A stretch of 64,000 bases of DNA from NCBI GenBank assembly GCA_965243835.1, contig OZ251578.1:1760303-1824302 (forward strand). Direction: 5' to 3'. Every line of letters starts with the position of its first letter. Position 1 is the stretch's first letter. This stretch comes from Candidatus Spongiisociaceae bacterium. GTDB lineage: Bacteria > Actinomycetota > Acidimicrobiia > Spongiisociales > Spongiisociaceae. This document shows, in pieces, positions 1,345-63,122 of this stretch. The notes beneath the pieces are model-generated. The model was not told where the DNA came from. It did no database searches and saw nothing but the letters and a program-made list of their open reading frames with translations. Both the position numbers and the translations under genes were made by a program.

Positions 1345-1422
1345 ACCGGCACTATAGCGTAATCCAATCCGCCATAGCCGCCCGCGGCTACTTTTTCATA
1401 CGGGCTTGCGACATTCAAAAAT

Positions 1423-2238: not shown

Positions 2239-2264
2239 CCTCAGCGCCGGAGGGGCGACCGACT

Positions 2265-3936: not shown

Positions 3937-3938
3937 TA

Positions 3939-5801: not shown

Positions 5802-5866
5802 AGCGGGCCCTATATTACACTGGTCGGGCGGGGAAGGCAAATCCGCCGTCCCGCCGAGGAGGACTG

Positions 5867-6856
5867 ATGACCAAATTCGCTTATTTCTGCGGCCATGAGC
5901 AGTGGCACCCGGAGCAACTGGTGGAGCATGCGGTGCGGGCCGAGCAGGCCGGGTTCGACATGCTGGTGGTGTCGGAGCACTTTCACCCCTGGGTGGACGA
6001 CGCCTCGGCCTCCGGCTTCGCCTACGCCACCATCGCCGCCATGGCCCAGGCCACCGAGCGGGTGGAGTTCACCACCGGGGTGACCACCCCCCTGTGGCGA
6101 TTCCATCCCGCCTTGGTCGCCCAGGCGGCCGCCACCCTGGACCGGCTGAGCGGCGGACGGTTCCGCCTGGGAGTGGGCACCGGCGAGAACATCAACGAAG
6201 GTCCGCTCGGATACCGCTTCCCCAAGTATGCGGAACGGGCCGCCCGAATGGACGAGGCCCTGCAAATAATGCGGCGGATGCTGGATGGGGAGAAACTCAC
6301 CTTCGAGGGCGAATATTACGTAACCGACAGGGCCAAACTCTACTCCCCTCCCCTGTCCCGGGTGCCGATCCTGATGGCGGCGGGCGGCCCCAAGTCGGCC
6401 CGGCTGGCCGGTCGGCGGGCGGATGGGGTGATCGTGTCGGTGAAAGACCCGGCGGACGCCATGGAGCGGGTAATCGGCCCCGTCCGGGAGGAGGCCGCCG
6501 CCCACGGCCGCCCCGCCCCCACCGTGCTCACCTCCCGGTGGGCGATCCTGGCCGGAGACGATGACGAGGCGTGGCAAGCGTTGTTTTCCTGGCGTGGCCT
6601 GCGGGCCCCGGGACGTCTGGAGGCGGTGGATCCGATGACCCTGCGGGAGCGGGCCGACGAGTTGCCCCGCTCCGAGGTGCTGGGCCGCTACGCCCGCACC
6701 GCCAACGCCGCCGACATCATCGACGTCTACACGCCGCTACTCAAAGACATCGACGCCGATGTGATAACCATTCAGATGGCCGCCGTCGACCAGGAAGCCC
6801 TCATCGATCTGCTGGGCGCCGAAGTGCTGCCCGCCCTACGCGCCGCCGCCTCGTAA
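5867..6856 (+). CDS. LLM-class F420-dependent oxidoreductase (luciferase-like monooxygenase family)
   Basis: Luciferase-like TIM-barrel motifs (FDMLVVSEHF, RFRLGVGTGE) typical of F420-dependent G6PD-like LLM enzymes. Confidence 0.75.
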   Translation: MTKFAYFCGHEQWHPEQLVEHAVRAEQAGFDMLVVSEHFHPWVDDASASGFAYATIAAMAQATERVEFTTGVTTPLWRFHPALVAQAAATLDRLSGGRFRLGVGTGENINEGPLGYRFPKYAERAARMDEALQIMRRMLDGEKLTFEGEYYVTDRAKLYSPPLSRVPILMAAGGPKSARLAGRRADGVIVSVKDPADAMERVIGPVREEAAAHGRPAPTVLTSRWAILAGDDDEAWQALFSWRGLRAPGRLEAVDPMTLRERADELPRSEVLGRYARTANAADIIDVYTPLLKDIDADVITIQMAAVDQEALIDLLGAEVLPALRAAAS

Positions 6857-9000
6857 ACCCGCCCGGAGATAAGCCCCGATCCCCCCGCACTCCCCAAAAA
6901 CGACCCCCTTGAATTTGCCGCCCACCTGAATTAAACTGAAAAGGCGGAGCAAAACTGAGGGCGGGCGGGTGGGGGGTGGGCGGGACCCCGCCTTCCGAAA
7001 AATTTTTCCGAGAACGCGAAAAAAATACCTATTTTCCCCAATATCTCCGTCAGGGGAACGCCCACCCGCGCTGGCGCCTCCCCCGGCCCCCGTCTTTGTC
7101 ACACCACCGGATTAAGGTAGGTAACCATGATGACATACGACACCCAACTAGCCCATCAACTCCTCCGAGCGGGCGCCGACGACCCGCACGCCGAGTCCGC
7201 CCGCAACAAGAGAAAGCCACCCGCTTCCTAATAACCCCGCCCGAGAAGAAGCACCGCTCCCCCGCACTCCCCAAAACGACCCCCTTGAATTTGTCACACT
7301 AGGCCATTAAAATTAAAGGCGGAGCAAAACTGGGGGCGGGCGGGTCCCCGCCTTCCGAAAATTATTTCCGAGAACGCGAAAAAAATACTTATTCTCCCCA
7401 ATATTTTCCGTCCGAGGAACGCCCACCCGCGCAGTGCCGTCCCTGCCTCCGTCTTTGACACCCCCGGATTAAGGTAGGCAACCATGACATACAACACCCA
7501 ACTAACCCACCAACTCCTCCGAGCGGGCACCGGCGACCCGCACGCCGCGTTCCACCCCCAACCAGAGGAAGCCACCCGCTTCCTAATAACCCCGCCCGAT
7601 GAGAAACACCGCTCCCCCCACACTCCCCAAAAACGACCCCCTTGAATTTGTCACACTCGGCCATTAAAATTAAAGACGGAGCAAAACTGGGGGCGGGCGG
7701 GCGGGGGGTGGGCGGGTCCCCGCCTTCCGAAAAATTTTTCCGAGAACGCGAAAAAAATACTTATATTTATTTCCGTCAGGGGAAACGCCCGCCGCGCCGG
7801 GTCCCGCGCCTTGGCCCCCGTCTTTGTCACACCACCGGATCAAGGTAGGCAACCATGACATACAACACCCAACTAACCCACCAACTCCTCCGAGCGGGCG
7901 CCGACGACCCGCACGCCGAGTTCCACCCGCAACAAGAGAAAGCCACCCGCTTCCTAATAACCCCACCCGAGGAGAAACACCGCTCCCCCCACACTCCCCA
8001 AAACGACCCCCTTGAATTTACCGCCCGCCTGAATTAAACTGAAAAGGCGGAGCAAAACTGGGGGCGGGCGGGACCCCGCCTTCCGAAAAATTTTTCCGAG
8101 AACGCGAAAAAAATACCTATTTCCCCCAATATCTCCGTCAGAGAAACGCCCACCCGCGCTGGCACCTCCCCCGGCCCCCGTCTTTGTCACACCACCGGAT
8201 CAAGGTAGGCAACCATGACATACGACACCCAACTAACCCATCAACTGCTCCAAGCGGGCGCCAGCGACCCGCACGCCGAGTTCCACCCGCAACAAGAGAA
8301 AGCCACCCGCTTCCTAATAACCCCACCCGAGGAGAAACACCGCTCCCCCCACACTCCCCAAAAACGACCCCCTTGAATTTGTCACACTCGGCCATTAAAT
8401 TAAAAAGGCGGAGCAAAACTGGGGGCGGGCGGGCGGGGGGTGGGCGGGTCCCCGCCCTCCGAAAATTTTTTTCCGAGAACGCGAAAAAAATACTTATTTT
8501 TCCCAATATTTCCGTCAGGGGAACGCCTGCCGCGCCGGGTCCCGCGCCTTGACCGCCATCTTTGTCACACCACCGGATCAAGGTAGGCAACCACAACATA
8601 CGACACCCAACTAGCCCATCAACTCCTCCGAGCGGGCACCAACGACCCGCACGCCGCGTTCCACCCGCAACAGGAGAAAGCCACCCGCTTCCTAATAACC
8701 CCACCCGAGGAGAAACACCGCTCCCCCCACACTCCCCAAAAACGACCCCCTTGAATTTGTCACACTCGGCCATTAAATTAAAAAGGCGGAGCAAAACTGG
8801 GGGCGGGCGGGCGGGGGGTGGGCGGGTCCCCGCCCTCCGAAAATTTTTTTCCGAGAACGCGAAAAAAATACTTATTTTTCCCAATATTTCCGTCAGGGGA
8901 ACGCCTGCCGCGCCGGGTCCCGCGCCTTGACCGCCATCTTTGTCACACCACCGGATTAAGGTAGGTAACCATGATGACATACGACACCCAACTAGCCCAT
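6857..9000 (+). repeat. tandem array A: about 5.8 direct copies of a 355-380-bp cassette. Each copy holds a promoter-like element, a G-rich leader, an A5T5 palindrome, an RBS, and the start codon plus about 30 codons of the downstream helicase gene
   Basis: Motif cactccccaaaa(a)cgacccccttgaatttg recurs at about 6887, 7263, 7621, 7991, 8351 and 8731. ATGACATAC start-like segments recur at 7127, 7484, 7855, 8215 and (ATG lost) 8590; the real start is at 8971. Two unit subtypes alternate 1,2,2,1,2,2, implying a higher-order duplication of about 1.1 kb. Copies differ by several percent. Confidence 0.9.
8751..8779 (+). promoter_or_regulatory. sigma70-like promoter candidate (TTGAAT-N17-TAAATT) of the last cassette, about 190 nt upstream of the helicase start; equivalent hexamers are in every cassette
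   Basis: -35 TTGAAT at 8751-8756, 17-nt spacer, -10 TAAATT at 8774-8779. The same architecture (TTGAAT-N17-TAAAAT) is at 7642-7670 and in the other units. Confidence 0.4.
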
Positions 9001-11067
9001 CAACTGCTCCGGGCGGGGGCCGGCGACCCGCGCGCCGGGTTCCGCCCCCAACAGGAGGAGGCCATTCGTTCCCTGGTCGGGGGCCGGGCCCCGAACCGGC
9101 TGTTGCTGGTTCAGAAAACCGGATGGGGCAAAAGCTTCGTCTACTTCATCGCCACCAAGCTCCTGCGCCGACAGGGGAAGGGGCCGGTCCTGCTCATTTC
9201 GCCCCTGTTGGCGTTGATGCGCAACCAGATCGCGATGGCGGAGCGTTTGGGAGTGGCGGCCGCCGCCATCCACTCCGGCAACAAACCGGAATGGAAGAGC
9301 GTGGTCGAGCGACTGTCCCGGAACGAAATCGACATTCTGCTGATCTCGCCCGAACGGTTGGCCAATCAAAAATTTAGGGAAGACGTGTATGCGCCCCACC
9401 TAAGCCAACCAGGTATGTGGGTGGTGGACGAAGCCCACTGCATATCGGACTGGGGGCATGACTTCCGACCGGATTACCGGCGGATCGAGGGCCTGGTCCG
9501 CGGCCTGCCCCCCAATGTTCCGTTGCTGGCCACCACCGCCACCGCCAATGACCGGGTGGTGGACGACCTAGAGCAAATACTGGGGCCGGATCTGCGAATT
9601 ATGCGGGGCGACCTGGACCGGCCGTCCCTGCGTCTGCAAACCATCGCCATGCCCTCCCCCCGGGATCGCTTGGCCTGGTTGGCGGAGAATGTTCCGCAAC
9701 TGCCCGGCAACGGCGTGATTTACACCTTGACCGTCCGGGATGCGAAGCGGGTGGCCCGGTGGTTGCAAAGTTGCGGAGTGGATGTCCGCGCCTACACCGG
9801 CTCCACCGACCCGGCGGAAAGGCCGGTTCTGGAAAATGCCCTGCTGGACAATCGGCTGAAAGCCTTGGCGGCCACCTCCGCCTTGGGCATGGGTTTCGAC
9901 AAACCGGATTTGGGGTTCGTCATTCACTATCAGGCCCCCGGATCGGTGATCGCCTACTACCAGCAGGTGGGCCGGGCGGGGCGCGGCATCGGCGAGGCCC
10001 GCGGTGTGCTGTTGAGCGGCGTCGAGGACCAGGACATCATCGATTACTTCCGCGAAAACGCCTTCCCGACCCGGGCGGAAGTGAAGGAAATGCTGGCCGC
10101 TCTTAGGAGAGCGAAGGACGGGCTGTCGTTCTACGACCTGGAAACCAGGGTCAACCTCAACAGCTACCGCTTGCGCCAAACCCTGAAATTGATGGAGTTG
10201 GAGACCCCGGCTCCGTTGGCCCGGCAGGATTCGGTCTATCAACTGACCCCGCATCGTCTGGGAGCGGGCTTCTGGGAGCGCGTGGAACGTCTCAACCGAC
10301 TGCGCCGGGAGGAGCAGGCTGAAATGCGGGAATACGTCGGGCTTGCATCGGGGCATATGAACTTTCTCATCAAGGCCCTCAACGGCTCCCCCGCCGCCGG
10401 CGATGACCCGCCGACCCTGCCGCCCCTTCCCACCACCATTTCCGGAAAACACCGGGTGGCCGCCGAGGATTTCCAAAAACGCGACTGGTATAGCATCGCG
10501 CCGCGTAAAAAATGGCCGAGGGGCGGCCTCCCCCGACTCGGCGTCCGCGGCCCCATCCCAGAAGACCGCAAATACCAACGGGGACGGGCCCTTAGTTTGT
10601 GGGGATTCGGCGCTCTCGGTCGGCTGGTAAAACAGGGAAAATACCAAGACGCCCGCTTCCCGGATCAATTGGTGGAAGATTGCCGGCGAATGTTCCGCGA
10701 CTGGAACCCGCAACCAACGCCGCGCTGGGTCGCCTGCGTGCCTTCACACAGCCATCCCGACCTGGTACCCGATTTCGCCCGGCGGCTGGCGGACGCCCTG
10801 GGTCTCCCCTTCCGCTCCGTACTGGAAAAAACCGGCAAAAACCGTCCCGCCCAAAAAGTTATGAACAACAGCAGGATGAGGGCCGACAACGCGGACGGAG
10901 CGTTCCGGGTAAACGACCGCCTGATGGGCCCGGAATACGGGGAACCGGTACTGCTGGTGGATGACGTTGTGAATTCAAGATGGACGATGACCGTGTGCGC
11001 CTGGCTGTTGCTGACGCAGGGAAGCGGCGAGGTGTTTCCGTTGGCCTTGGCGCAGGCGGGGGACTAA
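8971..11067 (+). CDS. RecQ-family DNA helicase fused to a C-terminal ComFC/GntX-like phosphoribosyltransferase (PRTase) domain
   Basis: RecQ motifs: PQQEEAI, TGWGKSF (Walker A), DEAHCISDWGHDFRPDY, LATTATA, YQQVGRAGRGIG. C-terminal about 130 aa carries ComFC-like motifs (NADGAFRV ... VLLVDDVVNS), characteristic of type-I PRTase/ComF proteins. Confidence 0.8.
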   Translation: MMTYDTQLAHQLLRAGAGDPRAGFRPQQEEAIRSLVGGRAPNRLLLVQKTGWGKSFVYFIATKLLRRQGKGPVLLISPLLALMRNQIAMAERLGVAAAAIHSGNKPEWKSVVERLSRNEIDILLISPERLANQKFREDVYAPHLSQPGMWVVDEAHCISDWGHDFRPDYRRIEGLVRGLPPNVPLLATTATANDRVVDDLEQILGPDLRIMRGDLDRPSLRLQTIAMPSPRDRLAWLAENVPQLPGNGVIYTLTVRDAKRVARWLQSCGVDVRAYTGSTDPAERPVLENALLDNRLKALAATSALGMGFDKPDLGFVIHYQAPGSVIAYYQQVGRAGRGIGEARGVLLSGVEDQDIIDYFRENAFPTRAEVKEMLAALRRAKDGLSFYDLETRVNLNSYRLRQTLKLMELETPAPLARQDSVYQLTPHRLGAGFWERVERLNRLRREEQAEMREYVGLASGHMNFLIKALNGSPAAGDDPPTLPPLPTTISGKHRVAAEDFQKRDWYSIAPRKKWPRGGLPRLGVRGPIPEDRKYQRGRALSLWGFGALGRLVKQGKYQDARFPDQLVEDCRRMFRDWNPQPTPRWVACVPSHSHPDLVPDFARRLADALGLPFRSVLEKTGKNRPAQKVMNNSRMRADNADGAFRVNDRLMGPEYGEPVLLVDDVVNSRWTMTVCAWLLLTQGSGEVFPLALAQAGD

Positions 11068-18974: not shown

Positions 18975-20135
18975 TCAAAAAAGATTCCGCCACCGGCCGC
19001 GCAACCGGAAAATGGCCAGGCCCGCCGCCAGGGAAGCGGCCGCGGCCAAGGCGAACACCGCCCGCGGCCCGACCGCTCCGTAGAGGGGGGCGGCGATGAA
19101 CGCCCCGGCTCCGGCGCACAGCAAACCCACCCCTTCCATGATCGCCTGCCCTTCGGCGGACTGGCCGGCCGGAACCACTTTGGCGGCCGCCGCCTGGGCG
19201 GTGGGGAGTTGGAAAGCCCACAGGCTGGAATACACCGCCGCCAAACCCATCAGGGCCGCCACCCCGGGGGACCATCCCAGCAGAAACACCACCGGCACGG
19301 TGGCGAAGGTGGACAGCATGGCCAGCCGGATGGGGTTGACGCGGTCGGCGAGGGCTCCCCCCACCGGGCTGAGGGCCGTGCTGGGCAGGGCGGTGGACAA
19401 GTAACTGAAACCCACCAGCAAGGTGCTGGCCCCCAAATCGGAGGCGAAGCGGGACCAGACCGCGTCCAGCACCCCGATCATAAACCAGGCGATCCCGGCC
19501 ACCACCAGCCCCGACGTCACCCCCGGCAGGCGGGCGATGCGCCAGCGGGTGAGGCGGACGATGGGACGGGCGTAGTGGTCCGGTTTGGCGAAAACCAACA
19601 GCGGGAGCATCAGCGCCCCGACCGCCGCCGGGACCAGGAAAGGCAAGGCGGTGTTCACTTCGTTCAACGCCCCGCCCAGGGGAGGCCCCAGCAGGAAGCC
19701 GGCCAGCAACGACGAGGTGAGCAGGCTCAATGTGCGGCCCTGGTGCTCCGGATCCCAACTGAGCATCACCCGGCGGCCGGAGCTGACCACCGCCCCTTCC
19801 GCGAATCCGAGCAGGGCCCGGGCGGCGATCCAGTGCCACAGTCGGGAGGCGGCGGCCATCCACGCCAGGGAGACGATCATCGTCGCCGCCCCGATCAGGA
19901 TCACCCGCCGCTCCCATCCCCGGTCGGCGAGGGGGGACATCGACAGGTGGGTGGCGAAAGTGGTTAGAAAAGTGACCCCGGCGATCACCCCCAAAGTCCA
20001 AGTGGGGTAGCCGAATCGGTCTTGGATGTCGGCCAACAAAGCCAGGATGGCCCCGATTCCCATCCCGAGGACTGCGGCCATCACCAAGAGCACGACCCGT
20101 CCGAGACGGCGCTGGGCATCGGTCATCAGCGACAA
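18975..20135 (-). CDS. MFS transporter
   Basis: 12 predicted TM helices, MFS signature-like DRxGRR region; probable TTG start at 20135 (ATG 9 nt downstream is an alternative). Confidence 0.75.
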   Translation of the reverse strand: MSLMTDAQRRLGRVVLLVMAAVLGMGIGAILALLADIQDRFGYPTWTLGVIAGVTFLTTFATHLSMSPLADRGWERRVILIGAATMIVSLAWMAAASRLWHWIAARALLGFAEGAVVSSGRRVMLSWDPEHQGRTLSLLTSSLLAGFLLGPPLGGALNEVNTALPFLVPAAVGALMLPLLVFAKPDHYARPIVRLTRWRIARLPGVTSGLVVAGIAWFMIGVLDAVWSRFASDLGASTLLVGFSYLSTALPSTALSPVGGALADRVNPIRLAMLSTFATVPVVFLLGWSPGVAALMGLAAVYSSLWAFQLPTAQAAAAKVVPAGQSAEGQAIMEGVGLLCAGAGAFIAAPLYGAVGPRAVFALAAAASLAAGLAIFRLRGRWRNLF

Positions 20136-20159
20136 TGATAATCCCGGACGGGGGGCGTT

Positions 20160-21300
20160 TATGCGCCGTCATGGGAAACCGGCCCCCGGCCCGTTGCGAC
20201 CGACCCCCGAAACCCGACCCGACCGGAAAAATTTCGCGGACGAAACCACCCGCCCGCCCCCCTCCCTCCCGCCCTTAATATACCCAAAAAATCACAACCA
20301 AACAAGAGGGTCTTTTCCCGAGAACGACGAAACACCAGGTCAAAGACACAATTAACGCTAAAAAATCTTACGCGAAGCCGAACGGACGGAACAATCCCGA
20401 CAACGGGGCCGCGGCGAAGGCATCTCGGCGGCACCCCGATTGCTTCCGCCCAAACCGGGCATCCCGACAATGGGAGCGCAGGAGCACCCCGGCATAGAGG
20501 GGCGAAGGCGTTATAACCCAATCACCAAAACGCGAATCGTCCCAACAACCCCAAGTCGCCGGCCAGCGGGAACGATGACCATCCCCAGCGGGAAACACTG
20601 CGCGCCGTCCCCGGGTAACCGGCCCTGCCCCTGTTGCGGCCAACCCGCAGAACAACCCGACCGAAAAAATTTTCGCGGACGAAACCTCCCACCCGCCCGC
20701 CCCCCTCCCTCCCGCCCTTAATATACCCAACATTCTGAAACTAAACAAGGGGGTCTTTTCGCGAGAACGACGAAACACCAGGTCAAAGGCACAATTGACG
20801 CTAAAAAATCTTACGCGAAACCGAACGGACGGAACAATCCCGACAACGGGGGCGCGGCGAAGGCATCTCGGCGGCACCCCGATTGCTTCCGCCCAAACCG
20901 GGCAACCCGACAACGGGCGACCGCGCACCGGAGCACCGGAGCGGCCCGGATAGAGGCGAGGCGTTGTAACCCAATCGCCAAACGCGAATCGTCCCGTCCC
21001 AACAACCCCAAGTCGCCGGCCAGCGGGAAACAATGCGCGCCGTCCCCGGTTAACCGGCCCTGCCCCTGTTGCGGCCAACCCGCAGAACAACCCGCCGAAA
21101 AATTTTCGCGGACGAAACCGCCCACCCGCCCGCCCCCCTCCCTCCCGCCCTTAATATACCCAACATTCTGAAACTAAACAAGGGGGTCTTTTCGCGAGGA
21201 TCGCGAAATGCCGGGTCAAACGCATAATTTGTGCTTAATGAATTTTTCGCGAGGTCGGATGCGGGTCAAACGGGCGACGGGGGCGGCGGGACGGCCTGTG
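20160..21300 (-). repeat. tandem array B: about 2.6 copies of a 431-445-bp unit between the MFS gene and tRNA-Val. Each unit carries, on the minus strand, the same promoter/G-rich/A-T-palindrome core found in array A
   Basis: ccctccctcccgcccttaatatacc recurs at about 20262, 20702 and 21137. The reverse complement of the unit aligns to the array A core (gacccccttg ... taWaWt ... gggggcgggcgggtggg ... cgaaaa(a)tttttcg). Confidence 0.85.
20277..20305 (-). promoter_or_regulatory. sigma70-like promoter candidate (TTGTTT-N17-TATATT, minus strand) in the MFS-proximal unit, reading toward the MFS transporter gene
   Basis: rc of 20300-20305 = TTGTTT, 17-nt spacer, rc of 20277-20282 = TATATT. The same arrangement is in the other units. 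Confidence 0.4.
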
Positions 21301-23275: not shown

Positions 23276-23300
23276 CAACCAACCCCGGGCGGGCCCGCCG

Positions 23301-24779
23301 TCAGCCGGGGGCCAACGTCCAGCCCCGGGGATGGGCGGCGACCAGCCGCTCCGCCGACTCCGGCCCCCACGATCCGGCCCGGTAAGGCTCGGGTCGGCCC
23401 TGCGCCCGCAGCGCCGGCGCGTAAAACCGCCACGCCTCCTCCACCTCGTCCCCCCGCACGAACAGGGTCCGGTCGTCGCACATTACGTCGTGGAGCAGTG
23501 TCTCGTAGGCGTCCGGCAACCGGCCGAACATGTCCTCGTAGTCGAAAGTGAACGGCTGGGCGGCCAGACGCGGGGCTTCCACGGGAACCTGCACGTCGAA
23601 CAGCAGGTCGAATCCTTCGTCGGGTTGCAACCGGAAATAGAGGACGTTGCCCGGCGGGCGATCCCGGTCGTAACGTTTGAACAGCGACACCGGCGGCTCC
23701 CGGAAAGTGACCGCCACTTGGGTGAGGCGAGCGGGCAGGCGCTTGCCGGTGCGCAGGTAAAAGGGGACCCCCTGCCAGCGCCAGCTGTCGACGAACACCC
23801 GCAGGGCGGCGTAGGTTTCAGTCGTCGAATCCGCCGCCACCCCCGGCTCTTCCAGGTATCCGGGCGCCGGGCTCCCGTCGACCGTCCCCGCCGCGTACTG
23901 GCCGAGGACCGCATCCTCCGGGCGCAGGGCCCGCAGGGACTGCAGCACTTTCACTTTCTCGTCCCGGACGGCTTCCGCTTCGAAAGAGGGGGGCGGTTCC
24001 ATCGCCACCAGGCTCAGGACCTGCGTGGCGTGGTTCTGAATGACGTCCCGCACCGCCCCCGACCGGTCGTAGTAGCCGGCCCGGGAGCCGATGCCGTCCC
24101 GTTCGGCCACCGTGATCTGAACGTTGTCGATGCGGTCCCGGTTCCAAACCGACTCGAACACCGGGTTGGCGAAGCGGAACACCAGCAGGTTCTGGACGGT
24201 GGCCTTGCCCAGGTAATGGTCGATGCGGAAGATGCGGCTTTCGTCGAAATAGCGGTGCAGGACGCGGTTCAACTCCCGGGCCGATTCCAGGTCGGAACCG
24301 AAAGGTTTTTCCACCACCAGCCGGGTCCAGCCCGAACTGCGGTGCAATCCCGCCTCCCCCAGGGCCCGCACCGCGGCGGGCACCACCTGCGGGTGCACCG
24401 CCAGGTAGAAGACGCGGTTGCCGCCCAGCCCGTGTTCCCGCTCCAAGGCGGGTATGCGCTCCGCCAAAGCCCGGTAGGAGCCGGGGTCTTCCCCGACCGG
24501 CTGGTAATAAAGCATGCGGTCGCACCACCGGTCCCGGACTTGGGCGTCCTCCGGGAAGGCTTCGGCCAGAGCGGCGCGGGACAGTTCCCGAAACTCCCGG
24601 TCGGTCAGGGGGGAGCGGGCCGCCCCCAGCACCGCGCACCGGTCTTGGAGCCCCGCCTCCCGCACCAGATGGTAAAGAGCGGGGAGCAACTTGCGGCGGA
24701 ACAGGTCGCCGGTGGCCCCGAACACCGTCAACAAATGGCTTTCCGCCCGCCCCCCGCCCGCCGTCGCCGGAAACATCAC
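23301..24779 (-). CDS. zwf: glucose-6-phosphate 1-dehydrogenase
   Basis: G6PD signature RIDHYLGK, NAD(P)-binding FGATGDL, EKPFG; 492 aa. Confidence 0.95.
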   Translation of the reverse strand: MMFPATAGGGRAESHLLTVFGATGDLFRRKLLPALYHLVREAGLQDRCAVLGAARSPLTDREFRELSRAALAEAFPEDAQVRDRWCDRMLYYQPVGEDPGSYRALAERIPALEREHGLGGNRVFYLAVHPQVVPAAVRALGEAGLHRSSGWTRLVVEKPFGSDLESARELNRVLHRYFDESRIFRIDHYLGKATVQNLLVFRFANPVFESVWNRDRIDNVQITVAERDGIGSRAGYYDRSGAVRDVIQNHATQVLSLVAMEPPPSFEAEAVRDEKVKVLQSLRALRPEDAVLGQYAAGTVDGSPAPGYLEEPGVAADSTTETYAALRVFVDSWRWQGVPFYLRTGKRLPARLTQVAVTFREPPVSLFKRYDRDRPPGNVLYFRLQPDEGFDLLFDVQVPVEAPRLAAQPFTFDYEDMFGRLPDAYETLLHDVMCDDRTLFVRGDEVEEAWRFYAPALRAQGRPEPYRAGSWGPESAERLVAAHPRGWTLAPG

Positions 24780-25900
24780 CTACCCCCTGCGACCGCCGCC
24801 AGCGACGCTCGCCGCCCCGGCCGACTTGGGGGGTTGTCCGCCGACGGCATTAAACCCGGCCACCGGACCCTCCCCGACATCCACCCGCCGCCCCCGACCG
24901 ACGAGAGCCTGACAAATAGCCTTCGGTCCAGGCGGCGAACACCCGACCGAAAGTGAAACCGGTTCCCGGAACCGGGCAGGCCCGCCCCGACCCGCAACCT
25001 CCAAAAACAACCCATCGTCGCCCCCACCCCCGCGCAACCGGCCCACGGACGCCGAAAACGACGAAACCGACCGCGAACGCCATCCGACAAGACATCCCGC
25101 AACGAAATTAAACACCGCGCACTCCCCCGGCCAAACCCGCGCCCCGACGACCGGACCCTCCCCGACGCCCACCCATAACACCTGCCGCCCCCGGCCCGAG
25201 CAGGAAGCGCCTCGCAACGAAACAGGTCGCCGGTGGCCCCGAACACCGCCGACAAATGACCTTCCACCCATCCCTACACCCACCGCCGGAAACATCCCCG
25301 CCAACGGCCAAGCCCGGCAAAGACCGGACCCCGGCCGCCGGGTCCTCCCCGACATCCACCCGCCGCCGACGACCGACGAGAGCCTGACAAACACCCTCCG
25401 GCCCGGGCGGCGAACAACCGACCGCAAGCGAAACCGGTTCCCGGAACAGACAGGCCCACCCCGCCCCGACCCGCAACCTCCAAAAACAAACCATCGTCGC
25501 CCCCGCCCCCGCGCAACCAGCCAACGGGCCGACAACGAAGGCCGAAACCGACCGCGAACGCCATCCGACAAGACATCCCGCAACGACATTAAACACCGCG
25601 CACTCCCCCGGCCAAACCCGCAAGACCCGCACCCCGACCCACCGGACGCTCCCCGACGCCCGCCGCCCCCGGCCCGAGCAAGAAACGCCTCGGGGCACCC
25701 GAGCGGCGAACACCCGACCGAAAGCGAAACCGGTTCCCGGAACAGACAAGGCCCGCCCCGACCCGACCCGCAACCTCCAGAAACAGTCCGTTGCCGCCCC
25801 CGCCCCTGCGCAACCGGCCAACGGATGCCATAAGCGAAGGCCGAAACCGACTGCGACCGCTGTCCGATAAAAGGCCTCGCAACGAAATTAAACACCGCGC
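24780..25900 (-). repeat. tandem array D: degenerate tandem copies (units about 280-500 bp) of the pgi-3'-end / intergenic / zwf-5'-end junction
   Basis: Segments resembling the last about 200 nt of pgi (cgacgagagcctgaYaa ... gaaaccggttcccggaac) recur at about 24860, 25340 and 25640 (plus the copy in the 3' part of ORF 25888..26472). A copy of the zwf start region (aacaggtcgccggtggccccgaacaccg) is at about 25210-25270. cgcaacgaaattaaacaccgcgc recurs at 25092, 25591 and 25872. Confidence 0.8.
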
Positions 25901-26472
25901 GCTCCGCCGGCCAAGCCTGATAAGGTCCCCGCGGCGGTCACCGGATCCTCCCCTGCATACGCCCGCAATGCCCGCCGTTCCCGAACGAGGAGAGCCTGAT
26001 AATCGCCTCCGGCCGGGGCGGAGTCGCTTCCGTTATCCTCCGTCCTACGCTCCCCGTCTTGAATCAGCCAGGCGATCTGTTCTGCGTTCAAAGTAGGCGG
26101 AGCCAACTGCGAGGCAAACGATTTCCAAGGATGCTTGCCCGGATTTTTGTTGGGCACGTTCTTCACGAAGGTCAGTTGCAGATGCCAGCCCGGTTCCAAC
26201 CCGGAGCGGATGCAACGTTCCACTTCGGTGCGCAGCGCCTTCTTCTCCAAGCTGATCCTCCGGTAGGGGCCGTGGCCGCCTTCGCTCTGGTTCGGAACCG
26301 TGGGATCGTAAATCTGAACCAAACCGACCGGCTTCCCGGCGGCGGCAAGAGCGCCGCTCTCCAGGTTGATGAAGGTCACAACGCCTACCACCGTAAAGCC
26401 GGGCTCCGGCCACTTGACGCAACGGCCCCGCAAAACGCCCCGCGCGCCTTCTGCCAAATTGAGGTGCGTCAT
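25888..26472 (-). CDS. hypothetical protein (194 aa) whose C-terminal about 45 aa is a diverged duplicate of the PGI C-terminus (chimeric ORF)
   Basis: C-terminus APAGGDYQALLVRERRALRAYAGEDPVTAAGTLSGLAGGARGV parallels the PGI C-terminus AQAGGDYQALIGRGRRVLRVDVGEDPAAGVRALLDLARGGA. N-terminal 150 aa unrecognized. Confidence 0.45.
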   Translation of the reverse strand: MTHLNLAEGARGVLRGRCVKWPEPGFTVVGVVTFINLESGALAAAGKPVGLVQIYDPTVPNQSEGGHGPYRRISLEKKALRTEVERCIRSGLEPGWHLQLTFVKNVPNKNPGKHPWKSFASQLAPPTLNAEQIAWLIQDGERRTEDNGSDSAPAGGDYQALLVRERRALRAYAGEDPVTAAGTLSGLAGGARGV

Positions 26473-26539
26473 TGCCTTTTCTTCTTTCTCCTCCGCCGCC
26501 CGCCCGATTTGGGGGGGTCCACCGACGGCGCCGACGGCA

Positions 26540-28188
26540 TTAAGCGCCGCCCCGGGCCAAGTCCAGCAAGGCCCGCACCCCGGCCGCCGGGTCCTCCCCG
26601 ACGTCCACCCGCAACACCCGCCGTCCCCGGCCGATGAGGGCCTGGTAGTCGCCTCCGGCCTGGGCGGCGATCAACCGACCGAAAGTGAAATCGGTTTCCG
26701 GAACGGGCAGGTCCGGGCCGCCCCGGTCCACGATCTGCAGAAACATCCCGTTGTCGGCCCCGCCCTTGTGCAACTGGCCGGTGGAATGCAAAAAACGGGG
26801 GCCGAAGCCGACGGTGACCGCCGTCCGGTGGGCGTCCCGCAGGGCGCGGCGCAGTTCCGCCAGGAGCGGGGAGGCCGGGCCGTCCATCGGCAGGTAAGCC
26901 TGGACGGCCAGGTAATCGCCGGGGCGGAGGCCGGCCAGCCATTCCCCCCAGGCGGCGGCCAAAAGCGGGGGGCGGGCGGCGTCCGTCGCCTCCGGCAACG
27001 GTGGCCCCTCCCCGGACATGGCCCGGTTGGCCAAGTCTTTGGCCACTTGCACGTCCGGCTGGTCGAACGGGTTGATCCCCAACACCGCCCCGGCGGCGGC
27101 CGTCGCCATCTCGCTCCGGTACAACTCCCCTCCCAAGTCATAGGGGTCGTCCGCCGTGATGCGCACAATGGGATGGCCGACGGCCTGCAGGGCTTCCAAA
27201 GCGGCCGGGACGCCGGCCGGGTCGTCGTCGGCCAACGCCAGGTGAATGAACAGCCGGTCCGGGCCGTAGGAGTCGGGACCGCCTACCGGTTCGTCGGTCA
27301 CCGGAACCAAACCGGTTCCCCGTTTGCCGGTGCTTTCCGCCAGCAACTGCTCCGCCCACGCTCCGTAGGCGGCCAGGGAGGGGGAGGTCAGGAAAGTGAT
27401 CTTGTCCCGGCCGGCCCGGGCGGCCTCCCCCATCACCGCCCCCAGTTTCAGGCCCGGATTGTCCGGCGGGGGACGGTGCGGGCCGCATTCTTCCATCATC
27501 TCCGCCGCCCCGGACAGCAGACGGGCGGCGTCCATTCCCAGCAGGGCGGCCGGAACCAGCCCGAAGGCGGTCAGGGCCGAATAGCGCCCGCCCACCTCGG
27601 GCGGAGCCCGGAACACCCGGCGAAACCCCCGCTCTTCGGCCAGGGATTCCAAACCGGAACCGGGATCGGTTATCGCGGCGAACCGGCTCCCCGGCTGGGC
27701 CGCAACCCGTCCGACCTGCTCCCAGAAGTACCGGAACAGGGACAGGGTTTCCAGGGTGCCCCCCGATTTGGAGGACACCAAAAAGAGGGCGCGCTCCGGA
27801 TCCAGGCGGGCCCCGGCCTCCCGCACCGCCGCCGGGTGGGTGCTGTCCAAAACCGTCACATCCGGATAACCGGGAGCGGACCCGAATATTTCCCGAAACA
27901 CTTCCGGGGCCAGGCTGGAGCCGCCCATCCCCAACAGGACCACCCGGTCGCACCATGGGCGAACCTCCTCGGCGAAGGCCCGCCACTCCGGCAGGGTTGC
28001 GGCGGCTACGGCCGGGGCCCGCAACCAGCCCAACCGGTCGGTCAGTTCGGGGACGGGCTCCGCCGACCACAGGGCGTGGTCGCCTTCCCACAGCCGGGTT
28101 CCGAAATCGGCCCGCTCCCAAGCCCGCAGGCGCTCTGCGACCGGCTCGGCCAAATCCGCCAACGCATAGGAAACGGTCGCGCTCATAA
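26540..28188 (-). CDS. pgi: glucose-6-phosphate isomerase
   Basis: PGI motifs (GMGGSSLAPEV, SKSGGTLET, GGRYSALTAFGL, bidomain length about 549 aa). Start set to ATG at 28188 (MSATVSYALADL); the longer ORF-track version runs into repeat array C. Confidence 0.85.
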
Positions 28189-28189
28189 C

Positions 28190-30188
28190 GTTAATGCTCC
28201 ATTCATAAGGGGGCGTTTGCTCCTGCTTTCCCGTTTTCGCACCGGGACCTACCCCGGACTTTACCGGCTGATTATGCCACCCCCGGCGGGCGGCGAACCG
28301 GCGCGGCGCGGTATCCGCGCACCGCCGCCCTTTGCCAGCCATAAAATCCACCGGGCCGGTAACGCCGCCGCATCGCAGAACCCGCACCGGATTAACAAAA
28401 GCCCGCCCGCCCCCGCCGGGCGAATCGGGGCCGGCCAGCTCCCGGTAACGGAACAAACTCTCCCTGACCGTCAAGGCCGACACCGGCGCGCGGCCAGCGA
28501 GCAACCCCCGCCCGGACAGCGAAACCAGGCTACGCGACGTTACGCAACCACCAAGGCGTCCCCATCAACGCGCATAGCCCCGGGCAGAGTCACATAAACA
28601 GTGGCGCAAGCGGGAAAATCCACCGAACCGGTAAAACCGCCGCATCCAAAACCCGCACCGAACTAACAAAAACGCACCGCCCCTCGGCGGGCGAAATCAG
28701 GACCGCACCGCTCCCCCGACAACCCAAACAAACCCTCCCCAACCGGCCACGGCCGACACCAGCGCACGGCTTACGAGTAGGGACCAGCGGGCAACGAACC
28801 CGATTGTACGGACTTACACAACCACCAAGGCATCCACATCAACGCGCATAGCCCCGGGCAAGGTCACCGTACACAGTGGTGCGAGCGGGGAAATCCACCG
28901 GACCGGTAAAACCGCCGCATCCAAAACCCGCACCTAACTAACAAAAACGCACCGCCCCTCGGCGGGCGAATCGGGGCCAGCCGGGCTCCCCGACAACCGG
29001 AACAAACCCTCCCCAACCGGCCAACGCCAACACCGGAGCACGGCCAGCACGCAACCCCCGGCCGGACAGCGAAACCAGGCTACGCGACGTTACGCAACCA
29101 CCAAGGCATCCCCATCAATACGCATCACCCCGGACAAGGTCACGTACACAGTGGTGCGAGCGGGGAAATCCACCGGACCGGTAAAACCGCCGCATCCAAA
29201 ACCCGCACCTAACTAACAAAAACGCACCGCCCCTCGGCGGGCGAATCGGGGCCAGCCGGGCTCCCCGACAACCGGAACAAACCCTCCCCAACCGGCCAAC
29301 GCCAACACCGGAGCACGGCCAGCACGCAACCCCCGGCCGGACAGCGAAACCAGGCTACGCGACGTTACGCAACCACCAAGGCATCCCCATCAATACGCAT
29401 CACCCCGGACAAGGTCACGTACACAGTGTGCGAGCGGGGAAAATCCACCGAACCGGTAAAACCACCGCATCCAAAACCCGCACCGAACTAACAAAAACGC
29501 ACCGCCCCTCGGCGGGCGAATCGGGGCCAGCCGGGCTCCCCGACAACCGGAACAAACCCTCCCCAACCGGCCAACGCCAACACCGGAGCACGGCCAGCAC
29601 GCAACCCCCGGCCGGACAGCGAAACCAGGCTACGCGACGTTACGCAACCACCAAGGCATCCCCATCAACGCGCATAGACCCGGGCAAGGTCACCGTACAC
29701 AGTGGTGCGAGCGGGGGAAATCCACCGAACCGGTAAAACCACCGCATCCAAAACCCGCACCGAACTAACAAAAACGCACCGCCCCTCGGCGGGCGAATCG
29801 GGGCCAGCCGGGCTCCCCGACAACCGGAACAAACCCTCCCCAACCGGCCAACGCCAACACCGGAGCACGGCCAGCACGCAACCCCCGGCCGGACAGCGAA
29901 ACCAGGCTACGCGACGTTACGCAACCACCAAGGCGTCCACTTCAATACGCATCGCCCCGGACAGGGTCACGTACACAGTGTGCGAGCGGGGGAAATCCAC
30001 CGGACCGGTAAAACCGCCGCATCCAAAACCCGCACCGGATAACAAAAGCGCACCGCCCCTCGGCGGGCGAATCGGGGCCGGCCGGCTCCCCGACAACCGG
30101 AACAAACCCTCCCGACCGGCCACGGCCGACACCGGCGCGCGGCCGGCGGGCAACCCACGGCGGGGCGGCTAACCCGGGTTGCGCGGCC
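28190..30188 (-). repeat. tandem array C: 7 decayed direct copies (about 275 bp each) of an internally deleted ridA gene, between the ridA stop and the pgi start
   Basis: ttacgcaaccaccaagg recurs at 28540, 28813, 29090, 29365, 29640, 29916 and 30189 (the genuine ridA 3' end), with periods of 273-277 bp. Units retain ridA-like 3' (TVYVTLPGAMRIEVDALVVA-like) and 5' segments. The units at 29090 and 29365 are near-identical. Confidence 0.9.
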
Positions 30189-30566
30189 TTACATCACCGC
30201 CAAGGCGTCTACTTCAATGCGCATGGCCCCGGGCAGGGTTACGTATACGGTGGTGCGGGCGGGGAACGGCTCGACGAAGAACTCGCGCAGGGCGTCGTTC
30301 ATAGCCGGAAAATCCGCCGGGTCGGTGAGAAACACCCCCAACCGGATCACGTTTTCCGCGCCCGCCCCGGCCGCTTCCAGGACCCGTGCCAGGTTGGCGA
30401 AGGCGCGCCGGGCCTCGGCGGCGAAATCGGGGCCGGCCAGCTCCCCGGTAACCGGATCGAACCCTCCCTGGCCGGCCAGGGCCAGCACCGGCCCCCGGCG
30501 CACGGCCGGCGAGTAGGGACCGGCGGGCGGCGGGGCCTGGTCGGTGAAAGTCGCCTGTTTGTTCAT
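30189..30566 (-). CDS. ridA: RidA/YjgF family reactive-intermediate deaminase
   Basis: RidA motifs (GPYSPAV, NVIRLGVFL, TVYVTLPGAMRIEVDA); start taken at MNKQATF (30566). A longer alternative starting at 30611 overlaps the upstream gene. Confidence 0.8.
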   Translation of the reverse strand: MNKQATFTDQAPPPAGPYSPAVRRGPVLALAGQGGFDPVTGELAGPDFAAEARRAFANLARVLEAAGAGAENVIRLGVFLTDPADFPAMNDALREFFVEPFPARTTVYVTLPGAMRIEVDALAVM

Positions 30567-34907: not shown

Positions 34908-35101
34908 TGCCTCTCTCCTCTCCTTGGACGCAAATCGCTACCGGCCGCCCGGGCTTCATCGCCCTCCGGCGGCTCTTGTATCCACCCTAACCGCATCCGG
35001 GAAGGCCAAGTCGGCGAAACCGCTAAAAATCGGGCGGAAAAGCCGAGCGGCCGCGCAGGGCGTATTGCGGGAGCCCGGACCGCTGGGTGGGGACGGTTGC
35101 T

Positions 35102-40765: not shown

Positions 40766-40806
40766 AGTAGTACCTCCGCTATCACCGAAGAAGGTTTGAA
40801 TACCAA

Positions 40807-41532: not shown

Positions 41533-41613
41533 TTACGACTCCAATCCGGTCACAGCGGGAGGTCGCGCCGCGGAATTACCCGCGGCGCGAGCGGTTCACC
41601 GCCGAAAGGGGGC

Positions 41614-63121: not shown

Positions 63122-63122
63122 A

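Follow-up and report, generated by a model that had tools for sequence, protein, structure and literature searches.

What occupies the DNA between pgi and zwf in this lineage, and how have its repeated parts come to differ from the genes they derive from? L001 and L002, the relatives that stand nearest to it within the species collection, have zwf directly after pgi with a gap of ~10-45 nt, an adjacency in relatives that the initial annotation had proposed as a check and that was found. Within the 64-kb window, the whole stretch of 64,000 nucleotides analysed here, the corresponding gap is a lineage-specific insert of 1.76 kb with two components, namely duplications of the pgi-zwf junction and a small foreign gene. 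The chief new result concerns the duplications, whose copies differ from their source in a one-strand manner, by C>T and A>G changes on the minus strand.

Make-up of the pgi-zwf gap

The gap was analysed through a blastn self-comparison of positions 24300-27000. Its parts are given below in the order in which they lie from pgi to zwf; ORF194 denotes an open reading frame of 194 aa on the minus strand at 25888-26472, and c1, c2 and c3 the full copies of the pgi 3' end.

26540..28186, minus strand: pgi, intact, 548 aa (Pfam PGI, E 8e-15), with 593 relatives found, the best at 60-62% identity
26534-26841, minus strand: U0, the last ~300 nt of pgi and source of the copies, 92-99% conserved among four strains
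26473..26539, minus strand: spacer 3' of the pgi stop (repeat family D7), ending in the ribosome-binding region of ORF194
26038..26472, minus strand: residues 1-145 of ORF194, a conserved small domain with phage relatives
25888..26037, minus strand: tail of ORF194; its part 25897-26021 derives from the final ~125 nt of pgi and is diverged but in frame
25897-26021, minus strand: this partial pgi copy, forming the 3' end of ORF194 (74.4% identity, E 1e-18, blastn)
25583-25866, minus strand: c1, a decayed, non-coding copy of the pgi 3' end (70.5% identity to 26534-26827, E 3e-39)
25298-25582, minus strand: c2, a copy of the pgi 3' end (73.4% identity to 26547-26841, E 1e-48)
25198..25297, minus strand: end of the spacer plus a copy of the zwf 5' end (repeat family D6), encoding ...FGATGDLFR... 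(ORF 24776-25267)
25102-25196, minus strand: a partial copy, covering the final ~95 nt of pgi (72.7% identity to 26534-26632, E 7e-11)
24855-25101, minus strand: c3, a copy of the pgi 3' end still adjoining the native spacer and zwf (71.4% to 26579-26841, E 3e-36)
24780..24854, minus strand: native pgi-zwf spacer, adjoining zwf upstream and matching the sequence after the pgi stop
23301..24779, minus strand: zwf (glucose-6-phosphate dehydrogenase), intact (Pfam G6PD_N E 4e-55, G6PD_C E 2e-107)

The final ~300 nt of pgi recur within positions 24780-25887 as four diverged copies, three full and one partial, at 70-76% identity; the same positions contain a single copy of the pgi-zwf spacer joined to the first ~100 nt of zwf. 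The zwf-derived part at 25198-25296 has its source in these first ~100 nt (24677-24777, 78-81% identity) and, read as 25296-25198, also matches the zwf start of strain L081. A larger unit can be aligned between 25198-25692 and 24677-25214 (76.7% over 550 columns, E 9e-107), and both sides of the ancestral junction occur within one unit in native order, that is pgi 3' end, spacer and zwf 5' end. In the spacer beside pgi, the first ~50 nt correspond to the native pgi-zwf spacer, which today lies at 24802-24848, and window positions 24848-24802 correspond to L081 1690-1736, directly after the L081 pgi stop. All copies of this array, hereafter array D (repeat families D1-D7), are direct and head-to-tail, with blastn self-matches of E 1e-11 to 1e-107, and are therefore far beyond GC-rich low complexity. 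The initial annotation had described the zone between ORF194 and zwf as built from diverged copies of the pgi 3' and zwf 5' ends, which is borne out by the self-comparison (E 1e-18 to 1e-107), as is the presence of the FGATGDLFR coding segment inside the zwf-derived copy; the duplication stands, but the copied lengths had been set too short, at 200 instead of ~300 nt for pgi and 60 instead of ~100 nt for zwf.

The annotation had also regarded the long reading frames of this zone as spurious, rightly so, given that the 371-aa ORF at 24780-25895 has codon-position GC contents of 0.69/0.68/0.70, i.e. no periodicity, and no Pfam match. The long array ORFs are non-coding and exist because adenine is depleted, being down to ~6% in the arrays. 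In array D, one frame runs without a stop codon from the end of ORF194 up to the start of zwf, a condition reached by only 0.8% of composition-matched shuffles; in L081 this open frame is interrupted.

The same kind of array is present in the independent assemblies L081, L082 and L086, and an assembly artefact can therefore be discarded. Approximately 800 nt of array D are missing in L082, mosaic conversion tracts run through the array of L081, and L086 carries an array of full and partial pgi 3'-end copies with a ~408-nt period, which reaches the contig end and differs from that of the window in unit number and age. Strains thus differ by gain, loss and recombination of array units. The pace at which orthologous array segments evolve is close to that of fourfold sites or below it, with 2% divergence between the window and L081 over 24780-25299 and 6% at zwf fourfold sites. 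The bacterium is uncultured, and its relatives are known from sponge metagenomes.

The locus is the product of recurrent tandem duplications across the pgi-3'/zwf-5' junction, with intact pgi and zwf outermost and dead fragments between them, and we hold this account of its structure and history with high confidence. Bacterial tandem duplications are normally lost quickly by recombination. Array D is like other junction-spanning tandem duplications in its head-to-tail layout, native order, intact flanking genes, strain-variable copy number and exchange of tracts; unlike typical bacterial ones, it and the three other arrays of the window described below persist to 25-30% divergence, decaying with a strict one-strand bias.

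A reading frame with a pgi-derived tail

ORF194 has a GGAGG-containing stretch 5' of its ATG, and its codon-position GC content over 26038..26472 (0.65/0.51/0.72) shows a coding-type periodicity. The last 41 residues come from the partial pgi copy: BLASTP aligns the C-terminus with that of PGI in the same frame, with 22/40 positions identical (E 6e-8), in agreement with the earlier reading of this end as a diverged duplicate of the PGI C-terminus. The N-terminal ~150 aa had been called unrecognised, a description that no longer applies. This N-domain has no Pfam or NCBIfam match. Among 1.8 billion entries, it falls into a small, conserved family of which 12 representatives were found; 7 of 10 members match phrog_1911, albeit weakly (best E 6e-7). 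Single-sequence structure prediction of ORF194 gave a pLDDT of 39, and an alignment-based AlphaFold2 model (pLDDT 80.6) was used instead. In Foldseek searches, the modelled N-domain obtained significant matches to nine phage proteins, the best in BFVD being 'SsDNA binding protein, Gordonia phage Parada' (E 2e-6, TM 0.48); matches to SSB structures in the PDB had E 0.3 or worse. A ssDNA-binding-like fold is thus possible according to the model. Compared with phage ssDNA-binding-like proteins (phrog_1911, Parada), ORF194 reaches TM-scores of only ~0.48, lacks a Pfam SSB match, and carries PGI-derived sequence in place of the native low-complexity tail of the family. The tails of the N-domain homologues are unrelated and variable.

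Tandem duplications are raw material of new genes, and the initial annotation had seen in ORF194 a chimeric gene created by duplication of a gene boundary. An in-frame fusion of two parents is indeed present, but duplication did not build a new gene, as the N-domain pre-existed and its tails vary. On sequence grounds, ORF194 is a small foreign gene of a phage-related family, truncated in its tail, that reads in frame into a decayed pgi copy. The stronger proposal, that boundary duplication made a functional chimeric protein with a PGI C-terminal module, could draw on the coding-type periodicity and on the PGI-derived tail being in frame in at least seven strain variants. It appears improbable, however, not only in view of the pre-existing family with its variable tails, but also because the tail is frameshifted in L082 (267-aa product), which argues that it is dispensable. 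Moreover, the 41 residues come from the very end of PGI, which is no known independent domain, and the N-domain itself diverges at codon positions 1+2 at ~0.8 of the fourfold rate (0.090 vs 0.113, over few sites), against 0.2-0.5 in neighbouring genes.

Strand bias of the substitutions

The most unusual property, an amino-to-keto bias confined to one strand and common to all arrays of the window, is absent from the initial annotation. It was quantified on the minus strand, each alignment column contributing a single event, copies being compared with the intact source. C>T changes (112/282) outnumber G>A changes (15/325) 8.6 times per site (Fisher p 7e-28), and A>G changes (52/105) outnumber T>C changes (19/142) 3.7 times per site (p 9e-10). 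Adenine is the most heavily altered base, with 50% of source A sites changed (A>G 52, A>T 12, A>C 6). The spectra of the single full copies on the minus strand are C>T 26 and A>G 17 vs G>A 2 and T>C 5 in c1, C>T 28 and A>G 19 vs G>A 1 and T>C 4 in c2, and C>T 24 and A>G 18 vs G>A 3 and T>C 2 in c3. The copy in the ORF194 tail, as old as the others, is nearly symmetric (C>T 12, G>A 8, T>C 5, A>G 1), which hints that translation status may matter for the bias.

The youngest copies are found in L086, where two units, 90.6% and 88.7% identical to the source, carry A>G 14 and 9, C>T 10 and 12, T>C 1 and 2, and G>A 1 and 2, respectively. In the youngest, A>G or C>T make up 24/28 changes (~86%); the early signature is therefore nearly pure. 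Decay among the L086 copies is graded (9%, 11%, 21%) and accompanied by mosaic tracts, and older copies also display C>G and A>T in 2.6-fold and 5.4-fold excess over their complements. No preference of the changes for a 5' or 3' neighbour (TC, WRC, CpG, CpA), such as would point to an enzyme, was detected.

Array D is one of four tandem arrays that occupy ~10% of the window, the other three being the following.

6843..9064, plus strand: array A, 378 nt x 5.9 (TRF), between plus-strand genes
20080..21295, minus strand: array B, unit ~440 nt, between an MFS transporter gene and tRNA-Val, with the same polarity
28343..30266, minus strand: array C, 275 nt x 7 (TRF), decayed copies of the 3' part of a RidA-like gene (source 30150-30531)

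All four have the same polarity whatever the orientation of the flanking genes, a statement in which absolute and sense strand are separated by array A alone, the others lying in or beside minus-strand transcription units. Counted on the plus strand, array C has G>A 18-20 and T>C 4 vs C>T 0-2 and A>G 1-5. The unit of array A comprises the 3' flank of a luciferase-like gene, a terminator, a promoter and the first ~100 nt of a helicase gene; with L089 as outgroup, its plus strand has G>A 20 and T>C 4 vs C>T 2 and A>G 1. Array B (20521-21295 vs 20080-20864, 79.6%) shows G>A 10 and T>C 6 on the plus strand from source (21204-21295) to copy. A decayed zwf-3' copy private to L082 follows the same absolute strand, with C>T 13 and A>G 4 vs G>A 0 and T>C 1. 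Array C is missing from strain L086, and array A is absent in L089 and shorter in L087. Two further duplications were considered: a sigma-gene 3' copy in L082 offers too few clean differences for the comparison of strand and sense, and a mini-duplication at 57158-57456 aligned poorly, with no clear asymmetry.

The array-type bias is not seen at the fourfold-degenerate sites of 38 genes, which hold G 2712, C 2540, T 423 and A 303 in minus-strand genes and G 836, C 846, T 115 and A 117 in plus-strand genes. The resulting (T/C)/(A/G) ratios are 1.5 and 0.97, whereas array rates predict ~33 and 1/33. Approximately 1.5 kb of non-array non-coding DNA, from which 50893-52098 and 40766-41613 were left out as coding, is likewise unskewed. 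An array-restricted one-strand bias is, in our judgement, very probably real.

Between strains, the picture is less sharp. Array differences between the window and L081 (C/T 37 vs A/G 25) are not clearly asymmetric and 24780-25299 is only 2% diverged, so that the biased process may not operate at present, or gene conversion may mask it; the three-strain polarisation of recent substitutions has too few sites and is disturbed by conversion among units.

Several candidate features of the arrays were discarded. A G-quadruplex runaway, in which a G4 formed by a G-rich lagging-strand template would leave a gap and so promote further deamination, does not fit: G4 motifs on the minus strand number 5 in array D and 0 in array A, which has 4 on the plus strand, and array C has 1, so that G4 is no general array feature. 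A structured or known RNA family was rejected as well, with no Rfam match even at E 1 and folding z-scores of -1.2 and +1.1. No convincing selected motif is common to all arrays, and k-mer enrichment is confounded by tandem repetition.

Possible origins of the bias

The cause of the bias is probably mutational rather than selective. Selection is an unlikely cause because a single A>G or C>T change would be negligible for RNA-level properties, yet such changes already dominate the youngest copy. The explanation that we favour as a whole, that the arrays are neutral junk decaying by array-restricted, replication-strand-specific, deamination-type mutation, has in our estimation about an even chance of being correct, and its most specific part, replication-linked deamination of single-stranded DNA, is tentative and somewhat doubtful. 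According to this scheme, the minus strand would be the leading-strand sequence and hence the lagging-strand template, an assignment made because the plus strand of the window has an excess of C over G (C>G) and 29 of the 38 genes lie on the minus strand. Within the arrays, this strand would be single-stranded more often than elsewhere, owing to fork stalling and gaps or to breakage and resection; fork breakage, resection and out-of-register re-invasion would alter copy number too. Unpaired C and A on the exposed strand would be deaminated to uracil and hypoxanthine and read as T and G. Such changes would accumulate in the arrays because these are unconstrained, until A falls to the ~6% observed, and this depletion would remove stop codons and thus create the long spurious ORFs.

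Parts of the scheme have published precedents. In E. coli, particular G-rich sequences lead to ssDNA gaps in the lagging strand (bioRxiv 10.1101/2023.10.01.560376), and the lagging-strand template is reported to be the preferred target of ssDNA deaminases (PMC5287224). Other aspects are harder to accommodate: under pure deamination, the excess of C>G and A>T needs abasic-site bypass, and spontaneous deamination is too slow to alter 40-50% of sites, barring very frequent exposure or an enzyme. No deaminase gene was found among the ~55 window ORFs scanned with Pfam.

The strand asymmetry of vertebrate mitochondrial DNA is explained by deamination of C and A on the strand left single-stranded. 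The arrays share with it the same two transitions on one strand and the pairing of a G+T-rich with an A+C-rich strand. In mitochondria, replication geometry and not gene orientation sets the polarity, as array A suggests here; all weakly selected sites are biased there, fourfold sites included, whereas here only the arrays are.

Deamination could also be linked to transcription, the arrays being long untranslated stretches within or beside operons, if ribosome-free RNA formed R-loops and the displaced sense strand were deaminated, with a G-rich sense strand reinforcing the R-loops in turn, much as G-rich sense strands stabilise R-loops in immunoglobulin switch regions. The sparing of genes would then be explained, and the translated copy in the ORF194 tail is not clearly skewed, while arrays C and D, the L086 pgi array and the L082 zwf-3' copy are all G+T-rich on the operon sense strand. 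Adjacent convergent non-repeat segments of L089 point the same way, being G-rich on the plus strand at 4650-5100 and on the minus strand at 5400-5900 and so tracking the direction of the flanking operons, not one absolute strand; a purine/pyrimidine alignment seeking the origin of these segments was not significant (best 62 vs null up to 55). We nevertheless consider transcription a rather unlikely driver, as array A has changed by G>A and T>C if read on its plus, i.e. sense, strand, the reverse of the prediction, and its units carry a plus-strand terminator hairpin and a promoter-like site, no minus-strand promoter-like site having been found in the array. A further possibility is selection on the untranslated RNA: an untranslated spacer of 1-2 kb in an operon would load Rho on its C-rich, unstructured RNA and silence the downstream gene, so that loss of C and A from the sense strand would be favoured, and, in an added variant, loss of stop codons could let ribosomes read through to zwf. 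The enrichment of all amino-to-keto changes, transversions C>G and A>T included, the folding of unit RNA at -141 kcal/mol in minus sense vs -74 kcal/mol in plus sense, and the frame of array D that is open up to zwf are compatible with such selection. However, any single site would have a minute selective effect, and still A>G or C>T account for ~86% of the changes even in young copies; the polarity of array A is wrong for its flanking genes, no open frame spans array C, that of array D is broken in L081, and the folding z-scores given above are unremarkable, so that this account has a low probability.

A dedicated, repeat-triggered hypermutation has a comparably low probability. Here an enzyme system would recognise new duplicates, or a single-stranded intermediate in their formation, and deaminate C and A on one strand in a burst, after which the copies would soon be too different to recombine, in analogy to fungal RIP or strand-coordinated mutation clusters. 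The confinement of the bias to repeats agrees with this, as do the slow evolution of orthologous array segments, at or below the fourfold-site rate (2% vs 6%, window vs L081), and the finding that strains only 6-13% diverged at fourfold sites lack arrays (C in L086, A in L089) already 13-28% decayed. Clean loss of an old array by unit recombination would explain presence and absence equally well, though, and the gradient and mosaic tracts of the L086 copies fit gradual accumulation plus conversion; neither a candidate enzyme in the window nor a sequence context preference was found. In a more general form, a lineage in which new duplicates undergo array-restricted, strand-specific A>G and C>T hypermutation, possibly enzymatic, on a single-stranded duplication or repair intermediate, the idea is still unlikely. 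Ordinary neutral decay under a general replication skew, visible only because the arrays are the only neutral DNA, would account for a polarity that agrees with the weak window-wide GC skew and gene-orientation bias; it is very improbable, since the fourfold ratios of 1.5 and 0.97 are far from the ~33 and 0.03 predicted, in a contrast of leading- and lagging-strand genes that cancels codon selection. Finally, copying by a reverse transcriptase, either as mutagenic retrohoming of the kind seen in diversity-generating retroelements or as retro-duplication of an edited mRNA 3' end, might be suggested by adenine being the most changed base. It is scarcely credible: adenine changes are almost all A>G instead of A>N, C>T is equally prominent, the copies are non-coding, array A is changed on the antisense strand of the copied gene, and no RT domain occurs among the ~55 window ORFs scanned. 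A diversity-generating retroelement needs a nearby RT and produces A>N, whereas the arrays lack an RT and have C>T 112 beside the adenine changes listed above.

The arrays also resemble, in part, two other systems. Like lagging-strand-template mutagenesis and strand-coordinated clusters caused by ssDNA damage, be it of APOBEC type or at resected breaks or in break-induced replication, their changes are strand-coordinated and localised, affect bases vulnerable only when unpaired and occur in rearrangement-prone DNA; they differ in lacking a TC or any other sequence context, in adenine being hit as strongly as cytosine and in being bacterial and evolutionary, not somatic. As in fungal RIP, transitions occur specifically in duplicated DNA and unique DNA is spared, but RIP is restricted to C>T with a CpA preference and mutates both strands of the duplicate pair, 'source' included, whereas the arrays have A>G as a co-dominant change without context preference, restricted to one strand, and leave the functional source, conserved among strains, untouched.

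Whatever its cause, the bias can be followed in unusual detail, because each array is paired with an intact source gene and its substitutions can therefore be polarised; such pairs are natural mutation-accumulation records. They indicate that mutation acting locally on repeated or untranslated DNA is at least 10-fold different in its asymmetry from mutation elsewhere on the chromosome. If single-strand exposure is the cause, the arrays would mark where, and on which strand, it occurs in an uncultured symbiont. A dedicated process would be a novel way in which bacteria defend their genome or stabilise repeats. Under hypermutation, rapid divergence would explain the persistence of the copies and would offer a prokaryotic counterpart of RIP, as well as a source of sequence free of stops in all frames. 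At the level of annotation, depletion of A shows how simply junk DNA can lose its stop codons and then enter annotations as long hypothetical proteins.

Layout of the pgi-zwf interval

All relevant genes of the locus, namely pgi, zwf and the intervening 194-aa open reading frame (ORF194), are located on the minus strand. Self-comparison of 24300-27000 revealed direct, diverged copies of the pgi 3' end (~300 nt, source 26534-26841); three of them are full (c1, c2 and c3) and lie in the stretch referred to here as array D (24780-25887).

Features of the pgi-zwf interval, with identity and E-value of each pgi-3' copy
26540-28186, minus: pgi (Pfam PGI)
25888-26472, minus: ORF194, 194 aa
25897-26021: pgi-3' copy forming the 3' end of ORF194, 74.4%, E 1e-18
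25583-25866: pgi-3' copy c1, 70.5%, E 3e-39
25298-25582: pgi-3' copy c2, 73.4%, E 1e-48
25198-25296: copy of the end of the pgi-zwf spacer and the first ~100 nt of zwf
25102-25196: partial pgi-3' copy, 72.7%, E 7e-11
24855-25101: pgi-3' copy c3, 71.4%, E 3e-36
23301-24779, minus: zwf (Pfam G6PD_N and G6PD_C)

Between pgi and zwf there follow in turn a spacer, ORF194 with a partial pgi copy as its tail, c1, c2, the copied spacer and zwf 5' end, the partial pgi copy, c3 and the native spacer. A larger repeat unit is also present (25198-25692 against 24677-25214; 76.7%, E 9e-107). The diverged tandem copies of the pgi 3'/zwf 5' junction proposed in the initial annotation were thus confirmed by self-comparison (E 7e-11 to 9e-107), but the duplicated stretches extend somewhat beyond the 200 and 60 nt it gave (~300 nt for pgi, ~100 nt for zwf). 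A single minus-strand frame (24780-25895) is open over the whole of array D; it overlaps the ORF194 stop by 8 nt (GTGTTTAA) and ends at a TAG adjoining the zwf start codon. A fully open frame occurred in only 0.8% of composition-matched shuffles, and the frame is broken in the close strain L081. The corresponding 371-aa ORF lacks both codon periodicity and a family match.

In L001 (MAG RHO1_bin_64) and L002 (MAG RHO1_bin_3), the closest relatives that the species collection contains, pgi is followed directly by zwf (PGI 60-62%, Zwf 66-67% identical to the window), so that synteny provides the unduplicated junction and the 1.76-kb insert is lineage-specific. Four contigs of close strains were recovered from independent metagenome assemblies. 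L081 (94% identical) is collinear over the entire array D, although c1 and c2 contain mosaic tracts resembling gene conversion; in L082 (~90%) array D is shorter by ~800 nt; and in L086 (~90-92%) pgi is followed by an array of its own, reaching the contig end, with a period of ~408 nt and a unit of one partial and one full pgi copy. Judged from its sequence, the locus consists of junction-spanning tandem duplications that carry a gene fusion incidental to them; events of both kinds are known. A tandem duplication with its ends in two different genes leaves both intact and deposits fragments between them, and it is probably because both genes survive that junction-spanning events alone are seen.

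Origin of ORF194

The last 41 residues of ORF194 align in frame with the PGI C-terminus (22/40 identical, E 6e-8), in agreement with the diverged duplicate initially described. The N-terminal part, previously considered unrecognised, proved to belong to a family: for the first ~145 residues, an exhaustive profile search retrieved 12 representatives (36-96% identical, 92-267 aa), a count that takes in two fragments and two close strain variants. Seven of ten family members matched phrog_1911, a phage family of unknown function, while Pfam, NCBIfam and PADLOC returned no match. With an alignment-based AlphaFold2 model (pLDDT 80.6), Foldseek returned nine phage-protein matches at E <= 1e-3, the best being a protein annotated "SsDNA binding protein" from Gordonia phage Parada (E 2e-6, TM 0.48); matches to OB-fold SSBs in the PDB were weak.

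The C-terminal tails of the homologues are of low complexity and unrelated, and the L086 homologue (P0004, 148 aa, 54% identical) occupies another site, flanked by a metallo-beta-lactamase-fold gene and an ABC-transporter gene. The different sites in close strains suggest the behaviour of a mobile small gene, and the pre-existing family, variable tails and other site in L086 together indicate that ORF194 is a foreign small gene, truncated where the tail starts and joined to a decayed copy of pgi. The birth of a chimeric gene, as first proposed, is therefore upheld in part: the PGI-derived tail is in frame and the 194-aa form is retained in at least seven strain variants, but the N-terminal part pre-existed and the tail is frameshifted in L082. 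Constraint on the domain looks weak, with a divergence, over a small number of sites, of 0.090 at codon positions 1+2 against 0.113 at fourfold sites. In L086 (9239-10447), P0004 directly follows the metallo-beta-lactamase-fold gene, which also matches the anti-Pycsar Apyc1 family; the matching position of the window holds only ~40 nt (35059-35100).

One-strand decay of the copies

The feature of the locus most worth attention is the one-strand decay of its copies. Alignment of each array D copy with the intact source gave, in the minus-strand reading, 24-28 C>T and 17-19 A>G changes per copy, against 1-3 G>A and 2-5 T>C. The asymmetry persisted after pooling five source/copy families, and changed sites displayed no preference for neighbouring bases in these families.

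Pooled substitutions per site on the minus strand (one event per alignment column; Fisher test)
C>T 112/282, G>A 15/325, p 7e-28
A>G 52/105, T>C 19/142, p 9e-10
C>G 39/282, G>C 17/325, p 3.6e-4
A>T 12/105, T>A 3/142, p 5e-3

The signature is nearly pure in the younger copies of L086, where k1 (90.6% identical to its source) carries 14 A>G, 10 C>T and four other changes; identity falls to 88.7% in k2 and 78.5% in k3, decay thus growing with distance from pgi. Older copies show an excess of C>G and A>T. After decay the minus strand holds ~6% A and 46% G, which has removed most stop codons on both strands. Between-strain differences inside the array show no clear asymmetry.

Three further tandem arrays, each made of the ends of neighbouring genes, are likewise G+T-rich on the minus strand, and the four together occupy ~10% of the window.

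Further tandem arrays
6843-9064: array A, 378 nt x 5.9, from the 3' flank of a luciferase-like gene, a terminator, a promoter and a helicase 5' end
20080-21295: array B, from the 5' end of an MFS gene and its upstream spacer
28343-30266: array C, 275 nt x 7, from the 3' part of a RidA-like gene

Array A alone separates strand from sense, being flanked by two plus-strand genes and carrying plus-strand terminator hairpins and promoter-like sites. With L089, in which the array is missing and a 122-nt gap separates the two genes, as outgroup, its derived changes on the plus strand comprised 20 G>A and 4 T>C, compared with 2 C>T and a single A>G; the bias therefore tracks the absolute strand rather than the sense of the copied gene. 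This polarity excludes an mRNA intermediate and argues against R-loop damage to the non-template strand, unless array A is transcribed antisense. R-loop damage does find support in two adjacent convergent, non-repeat segments of L089 (4500-5900), each G-rich in the direction of the operon reading in (the plus strand of 4650-5100 has 51% G and 15% C; in 5400-5900 it is the minus strand that is G-rich), which may be an exception to the absolute-strand rule. The leading-strand sequence is probably that of the minus strand, since C exceeds G on the plus strand over the whole window and the minus strand carries 29 of the 38 genes. General genome skew was rejected as the source of the bias: fourfold sites (G 2712, C 2540, T 423, A 303 in minus-strand genes; G 836, C 846, T 115, A 117 in plus-strand genes) gave (T/C)/(A/G) ratios of 1.5 and 0.97, against ~33 and 0.03 predicted from array rates, in a contrast of orientations that cancels codon selection, and ~1.5 kb of non-array non-coding DNA is unskewed.

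A mutational cause is favoured over selection, because any single change would have a minute fitness effect, yet 24 of the 28 changes in the youngest L086 copy are of the two favoured types. The amino groups of C and A are exposed in unpaired DNA only, and their deamination yields uracil and hypoxanthine, read as T and G; in vertebrate mitochondrial replication, C>T and A>G on the strand left single-stranded are the classical signature. Single-strand deaminases are described as hitting the lagging-strand template preferentially (PMC5287224), and particular G-rich sequences lead to lagging-strand ssDNA gaps in E. coli (bioRxiv 10.1101/2023.10.01.560376). The minus strand of the arrays may thus be exposed as ssDNA unusually often, and its unpaired C and A would then be deaminated. 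Stalling or gaps could cause such exposure, as could fork breakage followed by resection and re-invasion out of register; the latter process would also explain copy-number changes and mosaic tracts.

Arrays missing from strains just 6-13% diverged at fourfold sites (array C from L086, array A from L089) are already 13-28% off their sources, which could reflect a mutation burst at the birth of a copy or clean loss of old arrays; the L089 region equivalent to array B is also much shorter. Among known systems, a DGR, with its A>N changes and reverse transcriptase, was ruled out, as A>G dominates, C>T is prominent and the ~55 window ORFs scanned contain no reverse transcriptase. The arrays differ from RIP in their particulars, since changes are confined to one strand and extend to adenines, show no context preference and leave the source copy untouched; they differ from ordinary replication skew in that fourfold sites are spared. 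No bacterial precedent for one-strand decay confined to arrays emerged from the literature search.

Additional observations

A Pfam scan of ~55 ORFs of the window detected no deaminase gene. The window is rich in DNA-transaction genes, including a RecQ-like DEAD/Helicase_C gene overlapping a DprA/SLOG-domain gene (8971-12125), recA, cinA and several DNA methyltransferases (45261-46331, 52843-53565, 61515-62618). L082 carries a private tandem duplication (4701-5207) across the convergent 3' ends of zwf and a sigma-r4 gene, a junction of just 25 nt in the window (23276-23300); in the decayed zwf copy, 13 C>T and 4 A>G changes were counted, compared with a single T>C and no G>A. At 57158-57456, where the 3' end of a MiaB-like radical-SAM gene meets the cinA 5' end, a stretch of ~150 nt is tandemly duplicated once across the gene boundary (72% identity); GC skew is -0.35 in the intergenic part (57226-57403), and the duplication yielded no clear substitution asymmetry.

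In comparisons of the window with L081, L082 and L086, pgi (26540-28186) is under weaker constraint than neighbouring genes, its divergence at codon positions 1+2 being about half that at fourfold sites (0.068 against 0.135, window versus L086), a ratio that is 0.1-0.25 for the ABC-transporter genes. Three low-GC islands (550-5840, 12514-14922 and 60013-64000; 33-50% GC against a ~67% background) hold unannotated ORFs, AAA_15/AAA_21/SMC_N-type ATPases and a type I methylase (HsdM), and look like variable defence islands. One contains two diverged DUF6339 paralogues (550-1344 and 2265-3047, 57% nucleotide identity), and at the place of the 12514-14922 ATPase the content of L089 differs.
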